Assembly (NCBI GenBank): GCA_934216505.1
Contig: CAKQBW010000001.1
Coordinates: 20,553 to 84,552, forward strand
Length of the DNA stretch: 64,000 nucleotides
Direction: 5' to 3'
Source: an uncultured Alphaproteobacteria bacterium
Lineage (GTDB): Bacteria; Pseudomonadota; Alphaproteobacteria; CAAHEQ01; UBA3637
Positions within the stretch are counted from its first letter, which is position 1, and every line of letters starts with the position of its first letter. A model generated the notes under the pieces. The model made no database searches. It was not told where the DNA came from and saw only the letters and a list, made by a program, of their open reading frames with translations. Shown here in pieces: positions 11,843-56,059 of this stretch. Made by a program: the position numbers and the translations under genes.

Positions 11843-12036
11843 TGCAAGACGAAATTGTTTCTTTACAAATGCGTTTGATGGAACAGGATCGTCAGATAGA
11901 GGATTTGTCCAAAGAGGTGATTCGTGTGTCAAAGTTAGTTGAAAAATTAGCGAAAGAGTGGCAGAATTTGCGTGAGTCAAGGGCTGAAAATTTGGTCAAA
12001 CCACTCAGCGAAGAAACGCCACCCCCTCATTATTAA
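11842..12036 (+). CDS. slyX: SlyX-family protein
   Basis: 64-aa coiled-coil ending ...ETPPPHY, the characteristic SlyX C-terminus. Start overlaps the gltX stop. Confidence 0.7.
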   Translation: MQDEIVSLQMRLMEQDRQIEDLSKEVIRVSKLVEKLAKEWQNLRESRAENLVKPLSEETPPPHY

Positions 12037-12044
12037 ATTTTTTC

Positions 12045-12073
12045 TTGACTTTCGTATAGGGCTTTGTTATAAA
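12045..12073 (+). promoter_or_regulatory. sigma70-type promoter (TTGACT-17-TATAAA) upstream of the TAA gene
   Basis: Hexamers read directly with 17-nt spacer. Confidence 0.55.
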
Positions 12074-12107
12074 AGGGATATGGGGTTTTTATTGAAAGGG
12101 AAAAAAG

Positions 12108-13559
12108 ATGAAAATATCTAAAACCGTTTTAAGGATTTTGCTCAATCAATACAATGCTGTGCTGTTGGCTGGATTGTTGGGAACAGTGTTTTCCATACAG
12201 GCGAGGGCAAGTGTTCAAATAACGGGGACTTATGATAATACCACTGAACAAGAAAATGTATCGGTTTCCAGTCCAACCCTTTCGGCCACAACGAAAGCCG
12301 CAGGCGGCGGAAGTGCCAGCGAAAGTTTTACCGCTGATTTGGTAACAACAGATGATTTAGTTACCGCAACCGTTGGAACAGCGGATACTTTGACAGGGCT
12401 GACCGCAACTGTTGAGGAACTCAATTATGTTGATGGGGTTACCAGCAACATTCAAAATCAACTGGATGCGAAACAAGAAACCTTAAATGCTTCCACAGAC
12501 ATCACAGTTGGCAAGATAACGGCCAATGGTGAAATTACGGGAGCGTCCTTATCTGTGGCGGGTGGGGCGATTTCTGGGGGAGCCATTTCTGGGAGTTCCT
12601 TGACGGTGGGTTCATCAAGTGCCATTTCTTCTGTTGATGATGGGGCTAGTGCCTTAACCTCAGGAAATGAGACAACTTTGGCAACAACGGGAACTGTTTT
12701 GAAGTCTGCCGAAAATGCGGCTTATTCAGGGACAACGATTACAGGTGGAACTGCTTCCACTTTGTCTGAGGCCTTAAGTGAAGTGGCCGATCAAGTAAAT
12801 ACAAACACGACCAAAAATACGACCCAAGATACAGGATTAAGTAATTTGGCGGGTAAATTGGGCGTGAGTTATGAGCCCAGTACAGGGGCTGTTGGGGTGA
12901 CGGATTACACTTCCAACAATGTTGTTTCGGACGGCGAAAATGTGGTAGAGGCTATTGGTAAAATTGACACGAAAGTCGGGACAATAACAGGAACGACGAA
13001 TAATATCACAGCGTCTGACACCTTGTCCAAAAACCTCACTGATTTAGATGCCGCCATCGGGGATCGTACCAATTTAGCCAGCAGTAATGCAACCATCAAT
13101 GCGGCGACGACGACTTCGGTTGTTTCTGGACTTCAGGCGACAGGTAATGCTATTGGAGACATGGATTTGACGGGGACAAGGTATATTCTTTCTGCGTCTG
13201 ATTTAACTTCAGCTTCTCGGTTGTTGGATACCAATTTGAATCGTGTAGAGGCTCGTGTGGATAGTTTGGATAAAAAGTATGATGCCCGAATGAATAGTTT
13301 GGATAATAAAATTGACAAAATGGACGATCGGATGAATTCCGGTTTTGCTTCCTTGGCGGCTATGTCAGGATTACAACCCAATGCACGGGCCTGTAATGAC
13401 ACCCAACTTTCCTTGGGGGCTGGGACCTATCGGGGCAAAGTGGGGTATGCGCTGGGGGCTTTCCATTATTTTAATGATAATGTCATGATGAATGTGGGGG
13501 CGTCTTATGCGGGAAATAACAGTACCACTTTCCGTGGGGGAGTTACTTTTGGTTGGTAA
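12108..13559 (+). CDS. trimeric autotransporter adhesin (YadA-like anchor), 483 aa
   Basis: Extended signal peptide. Thr/Ser/Gly-rich passenger. Coiled-coil neck LNRVEARVDSLDKKYDARMNSLDNKIDKMDDRMNSGFASLAAMSGL. C-terminal beta-barrel anchor ends ...GASYAGNNSTTFRGGVTFGW. Confidence 0.75.
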   Translation: MKISKTVLRILLNQYNAVLLAGLLGTVFSIQARASVQITGTYDNTTEQENVSVSSPTLSATTKAAGGGSASESFTADLVTTDDLVTATVGTADTLTGLTATVEELNYVDGVTSNIQNQLDAKQETLNASTDITVGKITANGEITGASLSVAGGAISGGAISGSSLTVGSSSAISSVDDGASALTSGNETTLATTGTVLKSAENAAYSGTTITGGTASTLSEALSEVADQVNTNTTKNTTQDTGLSNLAGKLGVSYEPSTGAVGVTDYTSNNVVSDGENVVEAIGKIDTKVGTITGTTNNITASDTLSKNLTDLDAAIGDRTNLASSNATINAATTTSVVSGLQATGNAIGDMDLTGTRYILSASDLTSASRLLDTNLNRVEARVDSLDKKYDARMNSLDNKIDKMDDRMNSGFASLAAMSGLQPNARACNDTQLSLGAGTYRGKVGYALGAFHYFNDNVMMNVGASYAGNNSTTFRGGVTFGW

Positions 13560-13581
13560 GTTGTCCTTGAATAAAAAAGAG

Positions 13582-13608
13582 GCGGAACGGGTATGTTCCG
13601 CTTTTTTT
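13582..13608 (+). terminator. rho-independent terminator after the TAA gene
   Basis: GCGGAAC-gggtat-GTTCCGC followed by TTTTTTT. Confidence 0.7.
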
Positions 13609-13658
13609 ATCTTGATTTTTGGGACAAAATATGCCTTTATAAAATAAAGGAGTCAAAA

Positions 13659-14960
13659 ATGCGCATTTTTCAATTTGTTCTTTTTATGTTGTTTTCTATG
13701 TTTTATGGAACAAGTTATGCTCTGTTAAAAATAGATGTGAGTGGGGCAAAAAATAGTCCTGTGCCTTTGGCATTGCCCGTACCGTCCAGCCAAGACCAAC
13801 TGAAAGACCTATCCAACAAGATGATACAGGTAATTCGTGATGATTTGGAAAATTCTGGGCTTTTTCGTGTGATAGAGCCTGAAGCCTATTTACAGGAGTT
13901 TAAAGAGATTCAAGATGAGCCTCGTTTTTCGGATTGGCAGGTGTTGAATGCGCAGGTTTTATTGCAATCTCAAGTGGAACAAGACCCTTTGACCCAAGAA
14001 CTCAAAGTTTCTTTTCGGTTGTGGGATATTTTTTCCAATACCCAAATGGCGGCCAAAAAGATTACAGCGAAACCTGATTCTTGGCGCAAGTTGGCCCATA
14101 TTGTGGCGGACAGTATTTATGAACGTTTGACGGGGGATAAGGGGTATTTTGATTCAAAAATCGTTTTTGTTTCAGAAACAGGAAAGGGAAAACATCGTCA
14201 AAAAAGATTGGCTGTGATGGATCAAGATGGGGCAAATCTTCAATTTTTGACCTCTGCCGATAAAATGGTTATGACGCCTCGTTTTTCCCCGAATATGCGT
14301 CAAATTGCTTATCTTTCTTATCAAGATGGAGAACCTAAAGTTTATTTAATGGATTTAAAAACAAAAACCTCTGAATTAGTGGGTAATTTTTCGGGGATGT
14401 CTTTTGCGCCCCGCTTTTCTCCCGATGGTAAGGATCTGATTATGTCTTTTTCACAACGGGGAAATTCGGAAATTTATCGTTATCGTTTGGACACAAAGGA
14501 AAAAACAAAATTGACAAACCACCCCGCTATTGATACTTCCCCCAGCTATTCCCCTGACGGTCAGCAAATTGTTTTTAATTCAGATAGAGGAGGCACACAG
14601 CAACTGTATGTCATGAATGCTGATGGGGCTAATGTACATCGTATCAGTTATGGGGAAGGGACTTATGCAACGCCTGTTTGGTCGCCTCGGGGGGATTATA
14701 TCGCCTTTACAAAAATAAAAGATGGGGTGTTCTATATTGGTTTGATGCGCCCTGATGGGACAAGAGAACGTTTAATTGCTCAAGGCTTTTTGGTGGAAGG
14801 GCCCACGTGGTCCCCCAATGGCCGGTTTATTGTATTTGGTCGGCAAGAGCGGGGAAAGAAAGCCTATATTTATTCCATTGATGTGGCGGGATATAATGAG
14901 CGGCGTTTGAAAACGCCTAACGAAGCAACGGATCCGACTTGGTCGCCTCTTTTACATTAA
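13659..14960 (+). CDS. tolB: Tol-Pal system beta-propeller protein TolB
   Basis: Signal peptide MRIFQFVLFMLFSMFYGTSYA, TolB N-domain, and repeated PxFSPDG / PxWSPxG beta-propeller blades. The ORF-track start 13593 overlaps an upstream terminator; the ATG at 13659 has an AAGGAG RBS. Confidence 0.85.
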   Translation: MRIFQFVLFMLFSMFYGTSYALLKIDVSGAKNSPVPLALPVPSSQDQLKDLSNKMIQVIRDDLENSGLFRVIEPEAYLQEFKEIQDEPRFSDWQVLNAQVLLQSQVEQDPLTQELKVSFRLWDIFSNTQMAAKKITAKPDSWRKLAHIVADSIYERLTGDKGYFDSKIVFVSETGKGKHRQKRLAVMDQDGANLQFLTSADKMVMTPRFSPNMRQIAYLSYQDGEPKVYLMDLKTKTSELVGNFSGMSFAPRFSPDGKDLIMSFSQRGNSEIYRYRLDTKEKTKLTNHPAIDTSPSYSPDGQQIVFNSDRGGTQQLYVMNADGANVHRISYGEGTYATPVWSPRGDYIAFTKIKDGVFYIGLMRPDGTRERLIAQGFLVEGPTWSPNGRFIVFGRQERGKKAYIYSIDVAGYNERRLKTPNEATDPTWSPLLH

Positions 14961-36103: not shown

Positions 36104-36652
36104 ATGCGTCACGGATTTAAAAAAAGAACTTTAAATAAGAAAATTGCTCATCGTCGTGCGATGTTTGCGAACTTGGCGAATGCCTTGATTAAGCATGAAC
36201 AAATTAAAACAACTCTCCCTAAAGCAAAAGAATTAAGCCCCATTTTTGAAAAATTGGTGACTAAAGCTGAGGATAAGACTTTGCATGCAAGACGTCAATT
36301 ATTGGCTTTCTTGCGTGATGAAAAGATGGTTGAAAAATTGATGACTACCTTGGTGGAACGTTATGCAAAACGCAACGGTGGCTATGTCCGTGTTTTAAAA
36401 GCGGGTTTCCGTTTTGGGGATAGTGCTCCATTGGCGATTGTTGAATTGGTGGATCGTGATGTGAAAGCCAAAGGTCAAGATTCAGGTAAGATTGTTGAAG
36501 TTGAAACAGCTGATGAAAAAGTAGAAGATAAAAAAGTGGCAAAACCTGAATTAAAGGTTAAAAAAGAACGCACTCAAAATGTGGGGAAGATTACAGGGGC
36601 TGGGGTTGCCAAAAAGACAACGGCCATTCGCAAAACCAATACAAGCGTGTAA
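36104..36652 (+). CDS. rplQ: 50S ribosomal protein L17
   Basis: [25 protein letters not shown]17 N-terminus; 182 aa with Lys-rich tail. Confidence 0.93.
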
Positions 36653-36670
36653 TTAACTTTTAAAAATAAA

Positions 36671-36700
36671 ATCCTCACTTATCGGGTGAGGATTTTTTTT
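36671..36700 (+). terminator. rho-independent terminator ending the ribosomal superoperon after rplQ
   Basis: ATCCTCAC-ttatcgg-GTGAGGAT followed by TTTTTTTT. Confidence 0.8.
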
Positions 36701-36865: not shown

Positions 36866-37732
36866 TTATTTCAATGGTTCATCAATAAATTTTGCAATTT
36901 TTCGGGTAAGTTTTTTGGCCCCTGAAATATCCAAATGGTCTGTATCCGAAAAATCGTCCCACTCGTAACCTTTCCCTTTTAATTCATTAAGAACAGGGAT
37001 TTTCTTTTCTTTGGCCCATTTGTAAAGGTCATAAAACAAATCGTTTTCATTTGCTTTTTGGCGATCCAATTCCTTTAAAAAATCAGAACGAGCAGGGGCA
37101 ATAACAACGAAAAATTGAATTCCCCGTTCTTGACATTCTTCTGCCATTTCATAAAGATGGTGGTTTTGTTTGACAAACCTTTTGTTTTCACGCAAGTGAT
37201 GCGCACACCGTGCCTCAGGGCCCATAGGAATGACATTTAGATTCTTTTTTTCGGGTATATATCCAGAAAAACTTTTGTAATCAATATGGGAGTCGTCAAA
37301 TTTTTTAAAGCGGTGTTTGGCGGCTTTTTCCCATTGTTTCAGCCAATTAACATGATAAGGTACGCCAAAGACATAATGACTGACGGCTGTGTTTTTAAAA
37401 GATTGCGTCTTACATAATTCATGCCCTTGAGAATGAATAGAATAAAAGGCAACCACTTTTTTTAATTGAGGTAATTTGTCCAAGTATTGATCAAAAATCC
37501 AATGAGTTGTATAAAGGTCCTGATCTACTACACCCAAATTAAAGGCCTTGTCTAGCATATCGGTATCAAAGCCACGGGTACAGTGCGAAGAACCAATGCC
37601 CAAAATTTCAATTTCATTGGCCCGATATTCTAATCCCCGCTTTTTCAAAATAGATTCCGCAAATAAATGACGGCTTAGCCGATGGCGTTTGGACCGAATA
37701 AATTTTTTAATTGCTTTATATAGATTTAACAT
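36866..37732 (-). CDS. SGNH/GDSL-like hydrolase family protein (DltD/AlgJ-like), last gene of MoxR operon
   Basis: ILGIGSSH (block I, Ser nucleophile candidate) and a C-terminal DTDHL (Asp-x-x-His) motif. Confidence 0.45.
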   Translation of the reverse strand: MLNLYKAIKKFIRSKRHRLSRHLFAESILKKRGLEYRANEIEILGIGSSHCTRGFDTDMLDKAFNLGVVDQDLYTTHWIFDQYLDKLPQLKKVVAFYSIHSQGHELCKTQSFKNTAVSHYVFGVPYHVNWLKQWEKAAKHRFKKFDDSHIDYKSFSGYIPEKKNLNVIPMGPEARCAHHLRENKRFVKQNHHLYEMAEECQERGIQFFVVIAPARSDFLKELDRQKANENDLFYDLYKWAKEKKIPVLNELKGKGYEWDDFSDTDHLDISGAKKLTRKIAKFIDEPLK

Positions 37733-37779
37733 GAATCACTCCTTCTTTGATAAGAGGGTAGCATATTATGTTGATTTTA

Positions 37780-38241
37780 TCAATGTTTTTTTAAGACAAA
37801 TTTTATCCATTTTTGACAATTTTTGTACAGTTGAATGTCGGGTATTTTTTTGTCATAAATGGCAAAGGCTAAATCGTGCGCTTGAGTTTTGGTGAGAGTG
37901 TCAGGGGCCGCTGCAATGAGAAAATCTTGCCATCTTTCTTCAGATAAAGGAGCAATTTGCGGGCGTTCGTACTTTACCATAGCCACACGCTTTAAAAGTT
38001 GGGCCAACAATTTCATTTGGGTTTTTTGGGGGAGATTTTTTATTTTTTCTAATTCCTTTAAAGCATAGGGAAGGGGCTTTCTTTTGTGCTTTTCCCACAA
38101 ATAAAATAGTATGAGTCCAAGGATGAAAAAAGTAATGATTAAGATATACCAACCCTTTGCTAAAGGCCAAAATGAAGGAGGGACACTTGTATGAATGTCT
38201 TTTAATTGAGATAAATCAATAGGTGGGGTGGAAATGGGCAT
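37780..38241 (-). CDS. small N-terminally anchored membrane protein (DUF4381-like) of MoxR operon
   Basis: 153 aa; one TM segment WYILIITFFILGLILFYLW near the N-terminus; the start of this gene and the stop of the DUF58 gene are adjacent. Confidence 0.5.
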   Translation of the reverse strand: MPISTPPIDLSQLKDIHTSVPPSFWPLAKGWYILIITFFILGLILFYLWEKHKRKPLPYALKELEKIKNLPQKTQMKLLAQLLKRVAMVKYERPQIAPLSEERWQDFLIAAAPDTLTKTQAHDLAFAIYDKKIPDIQLYKNCQKWIKFVLKKH

Positions 38242-39159
38242 TTATTCTCCTAAACAAAAATGTTTAAATTGACTGATGTAATCACTGTTTGTGGATAAAG
38301 GCAAATATCCCATATTGTATTTTTGAATAGCTTTTCGTAAAAGGGTTGTTTTTCTTTGCCACGAATCTTGAAATTCTGTTTTAAAAGTTTTCTCTTGGGT
38401 ATTGATTAAGATATTTTCCCGTCCATTAGAGCAGGGAAATACGCCTAGGGGCATATTTACTTCCAATGGGTCATAAAGGTGGATAAAAGAAACGGTATTC
38501 TTGCGAGAAAAACGCCCCAAAGTTTCCATGTCTTTTTCGCCCACATCATGAAAATCGCTGAAGAAAAATAAAATAGCCCCTGAATGAAGGACTTGACTGA
38601 TAAACGGAAAAAGGGCGTTGAAAGACACTTCACTGTCATTTATATCGTTTTGTGAAAGTTGGTTTAAGAAATGAGGGAGGATTTCTTGGGCGGCCTCAAA
38701 GGGAAAGGAAATGATTTTATCTGTCAAAATTTGAAATCCCAAAGAATCGTTTTTATTTTCCGCCATAAAACCACACAATGCCGCTAAACGACCCGCCATA
38801 ATAGATTTAAAATGACCTTGGCTCGCAAAATGCATGGGTTTCCTTAAATCACACAGGATATAAACCTGCCGTTCTTTTTCTTCCTCATAAAGTTTGGTAA
38901 AAGGTTTCCCGTATTTTGCCGTGACCCGCCAATCAATTTGGCGAATATCATCGCCTGGTTGATACTGGCGTACTTCTTGAAAATTCAAGCCTCTTGATTT
39001 GAATAAAGACGGGGATTGACCTATCCCAGAATAAGTCCATTTCTTGCCCGTTGGTAGGGCCGTAGAGAGAGTTTCTTTTTTTAAATTGATTAAATCAGGT
39101 AATTCAAAAACAAGAGGATTTGTCATCGTGTTTCTCTTAAGGTAAGGGGACTCGTTCAA
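38242..39159 (-). CDS. DUF58-family protein (MoxR-associated)
   Basis: 305 aa immediately downstream of the MoxR ATPase and overlapping it; canonical pairing. Confidence 0.6.
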   Translation of the reverse strand: MNESPYLKRNTMTNPLVFELPDLINLKKETLSTALPTGKKWTYSGIGQSPSLFKSRGLNFQEVRQYQPGDDIRQIDWRVTAKYGKPFTKLYEEEKERQVYILCDLRKPMHFASQGHFKSIMAGRLAALCGFMAENKNDSLGFQILTDKIISFPFEAAQEILPHFLNQLSQNDINDSEVSFNALFPFISQVLHSGAILFFFSDFHDVGEKDMETLGRFSRKNTVSFIHLYDPLEVNMPLGVFPCSNGRENILINTQEKTFKTEFQDSWQRKTTLLRKAIQKYNMGYLPLSTNSDYISQFKHFCLGE

Positions 39160-40099
39160 TCAAACTTTTTAAAACTTCGTCTGAGGTTATATGCTCGGAT
39201 TTGGCTTCAAAAGTCAAAATTAACCGATGCCGCAAAACATCAGGGATTAAATCAGTGATATCTGAGGTTAAAACTTGTTCGTGTCCATTCAACCACGCAT
39301 TTGCCCGTGCGCAAATATCCAGAGCAATTGTTCCCCGAGGGCTGGCCCCATAGCGAATCAATTTGGATAATTCAGCCCCGTAAGGAGCGGGATTGCGTGT
39401 GGCCATAATAAATTGAATCAAGTATTCTTCTAACTCCTCCGCCATGGGGATATTCAATACTTCTTGACGGGCGGCCATAATTTGTTTTTCTGTAATTTTT
39501 GGGAAAAGGGGTGGTGCTTCTTTTTTTTCTTCCTTTTGAATTAATTTTAAAATCTTCCGTTCTGATTCAATGTCAGGGTAATCAATTTTTACATACATTA
39601 AAAAGCGATCTAATTGGGCTTCGGGTAAGCGATAAGTCCCTTCATTTTCAATGGGATTTTGGGTGGCCATAACTGTAAATAACAAAGGAAGTTTATAGGT
39701 CGCATTGCCCACGGTTACTTGTCGTTCCCCCATGGCTTCCAAAAGGGCTGATTGAACCTTGGCGGGGGCTCGGTTGATTTCATCGGCCAAAATCAGGTTG
39801 TGAAAGATAGGGCCCTTTTGAAAATAAAAATTGGCTGTTTCGGGTTTAAAAACATCACTTCCAGTAATATCTGCGGGCAATAAATCGGGGGTGAATTGAA
39901 TCCGATGGGCTTGGGCTTCAATCAAATTGGATAAAGTTTTAACGACCTTTGTCTTTGCTAATCCCGGGGCCCCTTCCACCAATAAATGACCATCACTTAA
40001 AAGGGCAATCAAAAGTCGGTCAATCAGTTGAGGTTGCCCAATAATTTGCCCGTTGATATAGGTTCTTAAGTTGTTAAATAATTCTTGATTTGGTGTCAT
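39137..40099 (-). CDS. MoxR-family AAA+ ATPase
   Basis: GQPQLIDRLLIALLSDGHLLVEGAPGLAKTK (Walker A) and LLFTVMATQNPIENEGTYRLPEAQLDRF. Start chosen at MTPNQ (ATG 40099-40097) behind an AAGGAG RBS; listed start 40216 is an over-extension. Confidence 0.85.
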   Translation of the reverse strand: MTPNQELFNNLRTYINGQIIGQPQLIDRLLIALLSDGHLLVEGAPGLAKTKVVKTLSNLIEAQAHRIQFTPDLLPADITGSDVFKPETANFYFQKGPIFHNLILADEINRAPAKVQSALLEAMGERQVTVGNATYKLPLLFTVMATQNPIENEGTYRLPEAQLDRFLMYVKIDYPDIESERKILKLIQKEEKKEAPPLFPKITEKQIMAARQEVLNIPMAEELEEYLIQFIMATRNPAPYGAELSKLIRYGASPRGTIALDICARANAWLNGHEQVLTSDITDLIPDVLRHRLILTFEAKSEHITSDEVLKSLIERVPLP

Positions 40100-40215
40100 T
40101 TTATCTCCTTTAAAATTGGAATACTTCAAATATAAAATTTTTTTTTGCAAAAAGCAATCAATTTTCTTGACATAAGAAAAAAATTCTTTATCCTGATATG
40201 CATCAGGAGTTTTCA

Positions 40216-40989
40216 ATGTTAGATGTTTTTATTTTATCCCTTGTTCAAAGTATTACTGAATTTTTACCGATTAGTTCTTCGGGTCATCTTTTATTGCTGA
40301 ATAAGTTGGGTTTTTCAGATCAGACTTTAGGCATGGATGTTTTGTTGCATCTGGGGACATTATTAGCCGTAATGGTGTATTTTAAAAAAGATGTATTGAA
40401 TCTGATTCAAGTTTTATGGGGGCGAGGGGACAAATACCTTTTTGGGAAATTGGTACTTGCCACTTTACCAAGCATTGTGGTGGGTTTTTTCTTCTTTAAT
40501 TTGATTGAACATTGTTTTCGCTCTCCTTACTTGGTGGCGATAAACAGCATTTATTGGGGAATTATTTTATGGGGAATGGATAAATACAGCCCCAAAACAA
40601 ATACAATAGAAAAACTTTCTTTTAAAGGAGCATTTTATATCGGTTGCCTTCAGTCTTTGGCGTTGATTCCAGGGACCAGTCGGTCGGGTATTACAATGAC
40701 TTGCGGGCGGGCTTTGGGAATAAATCGGCCAGAAAGTGCGCGTTTTTCTATGTTGTTATCTATTCCAACCATTTTGATGACGGTGGGGTATATTTTTATA
40801 AAAGGAATAAGGGGCGAAGTTCAACTTCCATCTTTTCCTATGGGATTATGGGGTGTTTGGTGGGCTTTTATTTTGGGGATTAGTGTTGTCTATTTTTTGA
40901 TGAAATGGGTAAAAACATTCTCATTTGGCTTGTTTGCCCTCTATCGCATTTTGTTGGGCGTGGGTGTTTTGCTCTATTTGATATTTTAA
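40216..40989 (+). CDS. uppP: undecaprenyl-diphosphatase
   Basis: 8-TM BacA family; SITEFLPISSSGHLLL and GTSRSGITMT motifs. ATG 40216 has a CAGGAG RBS. Confidence 0.88.
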   Translation: MLDVFILSLVQSITEFLPISSSGHLLLLNKLGFSDQTLGMDVLLHLGTLLAVMVYFKKDVLNLIQVLWGRGDKYLFGKLVLATLPSIVVGFFFFNLIEHCFRSPYLVAINSIYWGIILWGMDKYSPKTNTIEKLSFKGAFYIGCLQSLALIPGTSRSGITMTCGRALGINRPESARFSMLLSIPTILMTVGYIFIKGIRGEVQLPSFPMGLWGVWWAFILGISVVYFLMKWVKTFSFGLFALYRILLGVGVLLYLIF

Positions 40990-41166
40990 AACAAAAAGCC
41001 TAAGAGCACTGGCCAAATTTTTTTGATGAGCATTGTCAATTTGAATTAAAAGTTGCCGTAAAGAAGTCTTTTTTTGCTTGGCAATTTCTTTTAATTGAAA
41101 CCAAAATTCATCTTCTATAGCAATACTTGTTTGATGTCCCGATAATTCAACAGAATGCTTTTTCAT
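40921..41166 (-). CDS. ribbon-helix-helix (RHH_4 family) protein
   Basis: VELSGHQTSIAIEDEFWFQLKEIAKQKKTSLRQLLIQID...NLASALRLFVL matches the alphaproteobacterial RHH_4 pattern. Its 3' end overlaps the uppP 3' end by ~69 nt. Confidence 0.55.
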   Translation of the reverse strand: MKKHSVELSGHQTSIAIEDEFWFQLKEIAKQKKTSLRQLLIQIDNAHQKNLASALRLFVLKYQIEQNTHAQQNAIEGKQAK

Positions 41167-43170: not shown

Positions 43171-43791
43171 ATGATTGGAAAACTTTCAGGGCGTGTGGAT
43201 TCGTTTTATGAAGGCTACCTTATTTTAGATGTCAATGGGGTGGGTTATAGGGTCTTTTGTTCGTCTAAGACAGTGGCAAAATTAGGAGGCGTGGGGGCGT
43301 CGGCTTCTTTATGGATAGAAACGCAAGTGCGGGAAGATCATATTCACCTGATTGGTTTTGCCGATACAACAGAACAACAACTTTTTAATCTGTTGGGGAC
43401 AGTACAGGGGGTTGGGGCAAAAGTGGCTTTGGCTATTTTATCCGCTCTGACGCCTCAGGAAATTCAAATGGCGGTGATGACGGGTGATGGAAAAGCCTTT
43501 ACACGGGCAGGAGGAGTAGGCCCCAAATTGGGTGTGCGTTTGGTGACGGAATTAAAAGGAAAAATGGGAACAGTGGGCAGTCAAGAAGCGATGCAGGTTA
43601 TCAATTCTAGTGCTTCTGTTAGGACGGGGGCTTCTGTGATGGAGGAGGCTATTTCTGCGTTGTCTAATTTAGGATATTCTCGCATTGAGGCGGGTATGGT
43701 GGTGGCCAATGTTTTAAAGGCGCACCCTGATTCTAATACTTCTGATCTGATTCGGCTGTCTTTACGGGAAATTGGCAAGGGGGCGTTTTGA
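43171..43791 (+). CDS. ruvA: Holliday junction branch migration protein RuvA
   Basis: MIGKLSGRVD... and LGTVQGVGAKVALAIL HhH motifs. Confidence 0.9.
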   Translation: MIGKLSGRVDSFYEGYLILDVNGVGYRVFCSSKTVAKLGGVGASASLWIETQVREDHIHLIGFADTTEQQLFNLLGTVQGVGAKVALAILSALTPQEIQMAVMTGDGKAFTRAGGVGPKLGVRLVTELKGKMGTVGSQEAMQVINSSASVRTGASVMEEAISALSNLGYSRIEAGMVVANVLKAHPDSNTSDLIRLSLREIGKGAF

Positions 43792-44393
43792 TGAAAAAGA
43801 TTGTTTTTTTGTTGGGACTTTGTTTTGTTGGGTCGGTTAAAGCCATGGTGGCCCCTGAAATTTTTGACTATGAGCCGACTTGCCCTAAAGATAAACCCTT
43901 TATTCAAGTTATTCCTGAACGGGGAACAGAATGTCAATCTTGTGACTCTTTACGGGGATTGATGCTGAAAAAGGAGAGTGATTGTCAAAGGTGCCCTCAT
44001 CGTGAAAGGACGGAAAAAGGGGAATGTCGGTTAAAAAGATGTCCCGCTACGGCGCCTTACTATGAATCCAAATGGAATTGGAGTGGGTGTAAAAATTGCC
44101 AAGATGAACCGACGCATATTACGAAAGACGAATGTTTGCAGTGTCCGAATATGCGCTGGGTAGAGGGATTAAATCTTTGTGCGCCGAATAAAAAAGGCGT
44201 TATTTATTATAATGGGGAAAGTTTGGGGCAGGGGCGTTTAATTGGGGGGATGTTGCCTTATTCTTTTCCTTGTGATAACTTCAAAAAGGAAAAAGCGATT
44301 CGGACGGGTCGGGAAGAATGTCGTCTGTGTCCCCATACAAAATTTCAAGATGGTTGGTGTTATTCAGATCAAAAAGGAAACTCAAATGGTTGA
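43791..44393 (+). CDS. secreted Cys-rich protein inserted between ruvA and ruvB
   Basis: ATG overlaps the ruvA TGA (TGATG). Signal peptide [18 protein letters not shown]; 22 Cys in ~180 mature residues ([38 protein letters not shown]). Its stop overlaps the ruvB start. Confidence 0.6.
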
Positions 44394-55984: not shown

Positions 55985-56059
55985 GACCCTATCATCTAAT
56001 GGTTAGGATACAGCCCTCTCAAGGCTGGTATACGGGTTCAAATCCCGTTAGGGTCGCCA
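55985..56059 (+). tRNA. tRNA-Glu (anticodon read as CUC)
   Basis: 75-nt cloverleaf: acceptor GACCCTA/TAGGGTC, D-stem ATCT/GGAT, anticodon stem CAGCC/GGCTG with loop CTCTCAA, T-arm ACGGG-TTCAAAT-CCCGT, discriminator G, encoded CCA. Followed by a hairpin plus T-run. Confidence 0.8.

Follow-up and report, generated by a model that had tools for sequence, protein, structure and literature searches.

A conserved MoxR-DUF58-DUF4381 gene trio with a lineage-specific SGNH-fold neighbour in an alphaproteobacterial genome

The gene cluster and its products

The cluster discussed here lies in a stretch of 64,000 nucleotides (nt) from an uncultured Alphaproteobacteria bacterium (GenBank assembly GCA_934216505.1, contig CAKQBW010000001.1, positions 20,553 to 84,552 of the forward strand), which we refer to as the window. 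Four open reading frames (ORFs) follow each other on its minus strand between 36866 and 40216 in the list of window ORFs, and in order of reading they encode a MoxR-type ATPase, a DUF58 protein, a DUF4381 protein and an SGNH-fold protein, the last being the product of what we call gene 4 (Table 1). A preliminary description of the same DNA had presented a four-gene operon at 36866-40099, in which a MoxR-DUF58 pair was completed by a small N-anchored transmembrane (TM) protein and an SGNH/DltD-like hydrolase instead of the VWA proteins with which MoxR ATPases usually act. We find all four ORFs at those positions and agree on the nature of the genes, but not on the replacement of VWA partners by the hydrolase. 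MoxR-DUF58 cores are already on record with other partners, and the locus is a conserved minimal Bat-type trio together with a lineage-specific SGNH gene.

MoxR operons of the Bat/MRP type are widespread and have been associated with tolerance of stress, the integrity of the envelope and virulence, and to our knowledge the system has no known mechanism. The operon runs MoxR, DUF58, a small TM protein, BatA, BatB, BatC (a TPR protein) and BatD/E, and is found in B. fragilis, Borrelia (bb0170-0176), Francisella and Riemerella. MRP-type MoxR genes typically accompany genes for DUF58, VWA and TPR proteins (PMC11834572, PMC5700661).

Table 1. Features of the cluster, with positions in the window
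Feature	Position	Strand	Basis
MoxR-type AAA+ ATPase (MRP-like), 320 amino acids (aa)	39137..40099	-	Pfam AAA_3 + AAA_lid_2, orthologue lengths
[quoted passage not shown]
DUF4381 single-pass membrane protein, 153 aa	37780..38241	-	Pfam DUF4381, hydropathy
47-nt spacer before gene 4	37733..37779	-	sequence, four-lineage alignment
Gene 4, leaderless SGNH-fold protein, 288 aa, DUF1574/DltD-like family	36866..37732	-	
Bidirectional terminator-like hairpin, common to the convergent rplQ (+) and the MoxR cluster (-)	36668..36696	both	terminator scan

The first three assignments rest on Pfam matches well above the cut-offs. The MoxR protein matches AAA_3 (9.5e-63, 210.4 bits, cut-off 27) and AAA_lid_2 (3.6e-17, 62.3 bits, cut-off 22.7), and its translation has an intact Walker A motif, GAPGLAKT, and an intact Walker B motif, ILADEINR. 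Its orthologues have 77-90% identity and, because all of them are 319-320 aa long, the ATG at 40099 is the likely start, as the preliminary description had it. A longer moxR ORF opening with the TTG at 40216 was rejected as it would run into uppP/BacA (2.1e-67), which lies upstream of moxR and is divergent from it. The DUF58 gene is directly 3' of moxR, and this position immediately downstream is the hallmark of the MRP group (Snider & Houry 2006, as cited in PMC12067865).

In the case of the DUF58 gene the most likely start is at 39126 and not at the mechanical ORF start, 39159, which overlaps moxR, because orthologues are 293-297 aa in length. With this start the gap between moxR and the DUF58 gene is 10 nt, and there are 0 nt between the DUF58 stop and the DUF4381 start. 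The protein matches DUF58 (PF01882; 2.3e-31, 109.1 bits, cut-off 23.4), and an AlphaFold model built with 66 input sequences (predicted local distance difference test score 85.8) has the Rossmann-like alpha/beta fold of VWA domains. In it the classical MIDAS motif DxSxS is replaced by D104-L-R106-K-P, following strand beta1 (residues 98-104), and D104 and R106 are invariant among the 66 homologues. A BatA fragment cross-matches the DUF58 profile (7.8e-6), and a sequence search of the PDB with the DUF58 protein gave only chance matches (E>0.2). On the evidence of the model MoxR still has a VWA-fold partner here in the form of DUF58, an adaptor of the sort by which MoxR systems are defined, and the operon is not VWA-less.

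The third protein matches DUF4381 (PF14316; 1.4e-28, 100.5 bits, cut-off 27.2) and is the only one of the four with a TM helix, as hydropathy gave none for MoxR, DUF58 or gene 4. The helix is at about residues 30-48, with a hydropathy maximum of 2.36 at residue 30, and because the sequence KHKRK comes after it the positive-inside rule predicts an N-out/C-in topology with the bulk of the protein in the cytoplasm. We found no functional study of either DUF4381 or DUF1574 in the literature.

The spacer that separates the trio from gene 4 carries a Shine-Dalgarno sequence, AAGGAG (37739-37744), and a terminator scan found no terminator in it. It also includes the sequence TATGCTA (37759-37765, minus strand), which is invariant in the alignment of four lineages, with protein identities of only 59-76%, and which may be the -10 element of a promoter of gene 4 itself or a regulatory site. 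This suggestion of an internal promoter is not based on the promoter scan, which found 11 promoter-like sites against 11.9 expected in shuffled sequence. Downstream of gene 4 the ORF list and the terminator scan give only the hairpin, detected on both strands, and the convergent rplQ, which ends at 36652. There is no further ORF on the same strand, and in particular no TPR (BatC), BatD or BatE gene and, as stated in the preliminary description, no VWA gene beyond 36866. The cluster is surrounded by conserved housekeeping genes whose synteny is stable (uppP, dnaB, ruvAB and the ribosomal operon), and Rfam and tRNA scans of the window gave nothing in or near the cluster, the sole match being a tRNA-Glu at 55985.

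Gene 4 itself is not recognised by Pfam, its one match being to ALGX at E=0.21, below thresholds, and there were no matches to it in a sequence search of the PDB. The C-terminal region matches NCBIfam TIGR02171 (7.5e-10). The protein does have the alpha/beta/alpha fold of the SGNH clan (Pfam CL0264), and in fold comparison it scored 13.4 with PatB, 12.7 with OatA and 12.6 with DltD, the last giving the longest alignment (214 residues). A search of 5.8 billion proteins gave only 16 relatives. Among the 17 members of the family DUF1574 matches 11 (E<=1, best 2e-8) and DltD matches 7. The match to DUF1574 (PF07611, gathering threshold 29.1 bits) is absent from the gene 4 of the window, and distant relatives score 29.6-37.1 bits over the C-terminal third only. 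DUF1574 is a family of the SGNH clan for which neither function nor structure has been characterised (PMC9487903). With a profile of gene 4, 6179 of 1.84 billion representative proteins were found at E<=1e-3, of which 244 reached E<=1e-30.

The putative catalytic triad is Ser49 (in GSSH), Asp263 and His266 (both in DTDH), conserved at 99%, 98% and 99% respectively in 150 relatives, in which N65, D72 and G103 are likewise conserved. Because of this conservation we take gene 4 to be catalytically intact, with its activity predicted. The description of the last gene as SGNH/DltD-like is correct. No signal peptide or TM anchor was found in the protein (maximum 19-residue hydropathy 0.81). The N-terminus is basic and predicted to be helical, and of 152 relatives 4 have a hydrophobic one. 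A signal peptide hidden upstream of the assigned start was considered and rejected, as no possible start lies between the preceding stop codon and the one at which the ORF already opens, and the orthologues all have the same basic N-terminus.

Domain fusions were present in 7 of the top 150 relatives (P0048, P0077, P0082, P0120, P0127, P0151 and P0160), with partners that include radical SAM/SPASM, FdtA (a sugar-nucleotide isomerase), GT2, a TOD1-like glycosyltransferase, Hexapep (an acyltransferase), Gly_transf_sug/Caps_synth and GT8. The fusions suggest an uncharacterised cytoplasmic branch of SGNH proteins in polysaccharide and sugar-nucleotide pathways, and gene 4 probably encodes an O-acyl esterase or transferase that works in the cytoplasm, with sugar or glycan intermediates as its substrates.

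The trio and gene 4 in related genomes

Homologues of DUF58 and gene 4 were traced to their contigs, in records titled "Alphaproteobacteria bacterium" from metagenome-assembled genomes. With regard to synteny in alphaproteobacteria, a check proposed in the preliminary description, the four-gene order holds in one subclade and the trio and gene 4 are separate in other lineages. The trio with gene 4 is present in the window and in loci L001/L002, L003, L009 and L096 (DUF58 56-71% and gene 4 59-76% identity), and in L096, where another neighbour lies downstream, the trio and gene 4 are still together. The trio with neither gene 4 nor a VWA gene is present in L097, L098, L099 and L100, at DUF58 identities of 50%, 48%, 44% and 40% respectively. 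L097 has the same synteny from uppP to rplQ, with the end of DUF4381 34 nt from rplQ, while the trio is in another context in L099, where it is followed by rpmG, and in L100 it is followed by a weak TerB-like gene and then rpmG. The trio without VWA genes is thus kept in four contexts or more (L096, L097/L098, L099 and L100), with DUF58 at 40-57% identity. Gene-4 orthologues (41-47% identity) with no MoxR nearby are found in L004, between an rRNA methyltransferase gene and mutL, in L005/L006 and L015, near mfd, and in L007 and L008. The existence of each without the other is the reason for our not accepting that the hydrolase stands in for VWA partners.

The trio is well conserved between lineages (MoxR 77-90%, DUF58 48-71% and DUF4381 50-63% identity). 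The housekeeping neighbours uppP and sspB have identities of 50-62% and 45-60%, and the trio, being as conserved as these, is thus being maintained, which argues against decay.

The BatA/BatB (membrane VWA) and TPR genes that nearly always come after such a trio are lacking in this alphaproteobacterial clade. The search for BatA/BatB-type VWA genes covered the 64 kb of this genome and flanks of about 15-20 kb in the relatives, and none was found in the window or in 10 related loci. In the window a hidden Markov model (HMM) for BatA/B, built from 125 ORFs, had zero matches at E<=1, while this HMM picks up such genes in 59 of 61 other loci, and tblastn with a BatA fragment gave nothing credible. 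The preliminary description had said that there is no VWA gene; this is correct for genes of the BatA/BatB type, and needs amending for DUF58, which is itself predicted to have the VWA fold.

The missing BatA/B arm is unusual. We fetched 80 metagenomic DUF58 loci, being the best by similarity to the query and not a random sample, and classed their ORFs by iteratively built HMMs. Among the 61 in which MoxR-DUF58-DUF4381 is present and the sequence goes on for at least 600 bp downstream, a VWA gene directly follows the trio in 59, and 54 have two or more VWA-class ORFs. L011, a distant locus with 35% identity in DUF58, is an example, with the trio followed by a BatA-type protein that has the motif DVSGSM and a Pfam VWA match of 5e-19. 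The two exceptions, L044 and L047, are from the same organism and have a 536-aa membrane protein after the trio. There was no gene-4 homologue in any of the 61 canonical loci.

It appears that the loss of BatA/B predates the arrival of gene 4 and is independent of it, because sister lineages with a VWA-less trio have no gene 4, and there are gene-4 orthologues away from MoxR. In the simplest history the BatA-E arm would have been lost early in an alphaproteobacterial clade in which the trio persisted, and the insertion of gene 4 between DUF4381 and rplQ would have come later, in a single subclade (DUF58 identity of at least 56%).

A number of observations were made in passing on these loci. 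In the AT-rich and unrelated lineage of L044 (4482-8984) and L047 (6781-11283) the 536-aa ORF is a multi-pass membrane protein, and this is a second, independent trio without a VWA gene. The slot after DUF4381 is occupied by rpmG in L099 (8437-8607) and by the weak TerB-like protein of 249 aa in L100 (8388-9137), so that the fourth position is variable. In L009 the gene-4 orthologue is frameshifted in a homopolymer of 11 G (2744-2790), with the C-terminal part, including DTDH, in another frame, and the explanation could be a pseudogene, slipped-strand switching or an error in the assembly. L009 also has an extra ORF of 287 aa between gene 4 and rplQ (2897-3760, minus strand), with matches to TPR_19 (E=0.065) and DUF5315 (E=0.0056) that are below threshold; the junction of trio and rplQ seems to be an insertion hotspot. 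L099 has genes for a phage head-tail connector, a capsid protein and an S24 peptidase repressor-like protein about 2-4 kb downstream of the trio (12025-14909), probably a prophage unrelated to it. The 149-aa ORF upstream of the unlinked L005 orthologue was rejected as a cryptic DUF4381 gene, as it matches neither Pfam nor the DUF4381 HMM. The gene upstream of P0007 is too long for DUF4381 (at least 288 aa).

Possible functions of the trio and gene 4

The reading that we favour, and consider reasonably probable, is that the locus holds a minimal membrane-tethered MoxR-DUF58-DUF4381 module, to which the gene of a cytoplasmic acyl-esterase or transferase, probably unrelated to it, has been appended. 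DUF4381 would tether the MoxR-DUF58 pair to the inner membrane, with its C-terminal domain of about 100 residues, DUF58 and MoxR meeting on the cytoplasmic face, and DUF58 would present the substrate to the MoxR ring for ATP-driven remodelling. From the analogy with NorQ-NorD, RavA-ViaA, CbbQ-CbbO and other MoxR-VWA pairs we infer that the trio most likely remodels or matures a membrane or envelope protein, driven by ATP and guided by the adaptor. The published phenotypes of Bat/MRP operons are in stress tolerance and envelope integrity (PMC5700661, PMC11834572). Gene 4, after its insertion between trio and rplQ, would be transcribed either with the trio or from its own promoter, and the most likely reason for its place beside the trio is history and not function.

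With regard to known systems, the first three genes are of the same families as in the Bat operon, in the same order and with the same tight spacing. The differences are the lack of the BatA/BatB membrane VWA proteins and of the TPR/BatD arm, and the presence of an SGNH gene as the last gene, ending at a terminator common to rplQ. There is also a difference in location, as the VWA domain of the BatA-like BB0173 is periplasmic (PMC5700661), whereas here the prediction puts everything in the cytoplasm but some 28 residues of DUF4381. In comparison with NorQ-NorD, RavA-ViaA and CbbQ-CbbO, the DUF58 adaptor has D-L-R-K-P and not the MIDAS DxSxS, and there is a third fixed component in the membrane anchor DUF4381. 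The Bifidobacterium PFNA cluster (Pkb2-FN3-MoxR-DUF58-transglutaminase) and the mycobacterial moxR1-DUF58-VWA genes by ripAB (PMC12067865) likewise have a MoxR-DUF58 core with varied neighbours, including enzymes, and the pair is a portable core that joins different neighbours. However these clusters have other partner families, with no SGNH partner described, and the mycobacterial operon keeps a separate VWA membrane protein. In the case of gene 4 the likeness is to DltD, DUF1574, AlgJ-AlgX and PatB in the SGNH fold, with the order Ser...Asp-x-x-His as in DltD and weak profile similarity to DltD and DUF1574. However DltD, AlgJ, AlgX and PatB act outside the cytoplasmic membrane with MBOAT partners, whereas gene 4 is leaderless and no MBOAT-type partner (DltB/AlgI/PatA) is annotated beside it or in the fetched orthologue loci. 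The fusions of its family to cytoplasmic glycosyltransferases and sugar-nucleotide enzymes are also unlike the known extracytoplasmic families.

There are several points that weigh against this combination of module and unrelated gene. Homologues of BatA/B could lie in other parts of the genome. L096 retains gene 4 beside the trio despite its altered downstream neighbour and no terminator separates DUF4381 from gene 4, so that co-transcription and a lineage-specific functional link are possible. There is also a precedent for a MoxR protein handling a neighbouring cell-wall hydrolase, as MoxR1 is reported to interact with the adjacent RipA (PMC12067865). Finally, the cytoplasmic location of gene 4 is a prediction from hydropathy, and its role with glycans is drawn from fusions in distant relatives and not from the neighbourhoods of its own clade.

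Two alternatives stand at about the same level, and both are unlikely. The first is that of the preliminary description, in which the SGNH enzyme of the subclade is a dedicated client or effector of the membrane-tethered trio, with MoxR and DUF58 folding, activating or positioning the enzyme at the membrane in place of the lost BatA/B arm. The RipA precedent applies here, as does the arrangement on one strand, with a 47-nt gap that has a Shine-Dalgarno sequence and lacks a terminator, and the four-gene order kept in the window, L001/L002, L003, L009 and L096; the basic N-terminus of gene 4 is also amphipathic and could bind the membrane. However the adjacency from which the proposal derives is limited to one subclade and can be explained by a single insertion event. 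The trio does without gene 4 in L097-L100, gene 4 does without a nearby trio in five loci, and its homologues are absent from the 61 canonical loci. Furthermore the slot after DUF4381 is variable, being taken by nothing, rpmG, a TerB-like gene or the 536-aa membrane protein, and the conserved motif in the spacer may be a separate promoter. We therefore regard a role for the hydrolase as client or effector as doubtful, and its recruitment to a dedicated role in this subclade as a little more doubtful still. If it were true it would provide the first defined enzyme substrate for a MoxR system of the Bat/MRP type, and would connect the system with the modification by acyl groups of an envelope glycan or lipid precursor, with the undecaprenyl-diphosphatase gene uppP next door.

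The second alternative is that the trio is not autonomous, being either the remnant of a decaying Bat operon in a reduced genome or a part of a system that works with BatA, BatB and TPR proteins encoded elsewhere on the chromosome. It gains from the limited extent of the search for BatA/B genes, and from VWA genes being nearly always part of canonical systems. However all three genes are intact, with the Walker A and B motifs and the DUF58 signature preserved, and the conservation of the trio in several contexts and in lineages with as little as 40% DUF58 identity speaks against decay. With BatA/B adjacent in 59 of the 61 canonical loci, a split system would be unusual in its own right, and the unrelated lineage of L044 and L047 also has a trio without VWA genes. 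We think this alternative improbable.

It is highly improbable that the cluster serves in conflict or anti-phage defence as a system of the MoxR-vWA type, in which the SGNH protein would be the effector, for although the MoxR of the cluster matches the bpMoxR profile (2.5e-18) of the ternary MoxR-vWA systems described in PMC7159879, it scores far higher with AAA_3 (210 against 66 bits), PADLOC gave a marginal DolB match for the ATPase (2.4e-4) and none for DUF58, DUF4381 or gene 4, there is no beta-propeller or other ternary-system component, and the synteny among housekeeping genes is stable.

If the locus is a minimal tethered module with an appended gene, then the stable retention of MoxR, DUF58 and DUF4381 alone in a clade suggests that these form a self-sufficient core, and BatA/B/C/D would then be an accessory arm facing the periplasm. 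The trio would also be a simpler system for reconstitution. The DUF58 protein, as a VWA-fold adaptor without MIDAS, clarifies the statement that MoxR needs a VWA partner for these operons. Gene 4 for its part leads to a branch of the SGNH clan that is large and cytoplasmic, with about 6000 representatives of clusters at 50% identity, and the fusions with glycosyltransferases give its family a testable role in glycan modification.

Other features of the window

Two further features are recorded here. Between ruvA and ruvB there is an ORF of 201 aa (43788-44393, plus strand) that is cysteine-rich and has a hydrophobic N-terminus. The same slot in L001 and L096-L098 has an ORF of 178-191 aa, for which there was no Pfam match and no similarity to the window version by tblastn, and the ORF may be for a fast-evolving secreted protein inside the ruvAB operon. 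The convergent 3' ends of uppP (40198-40989, plus strand) and an RHH_4 gene (40921-41166, minus strand) overlap by 69 nt (40921-40989), and the overlap is also present in L001, L096, L097 and L098.

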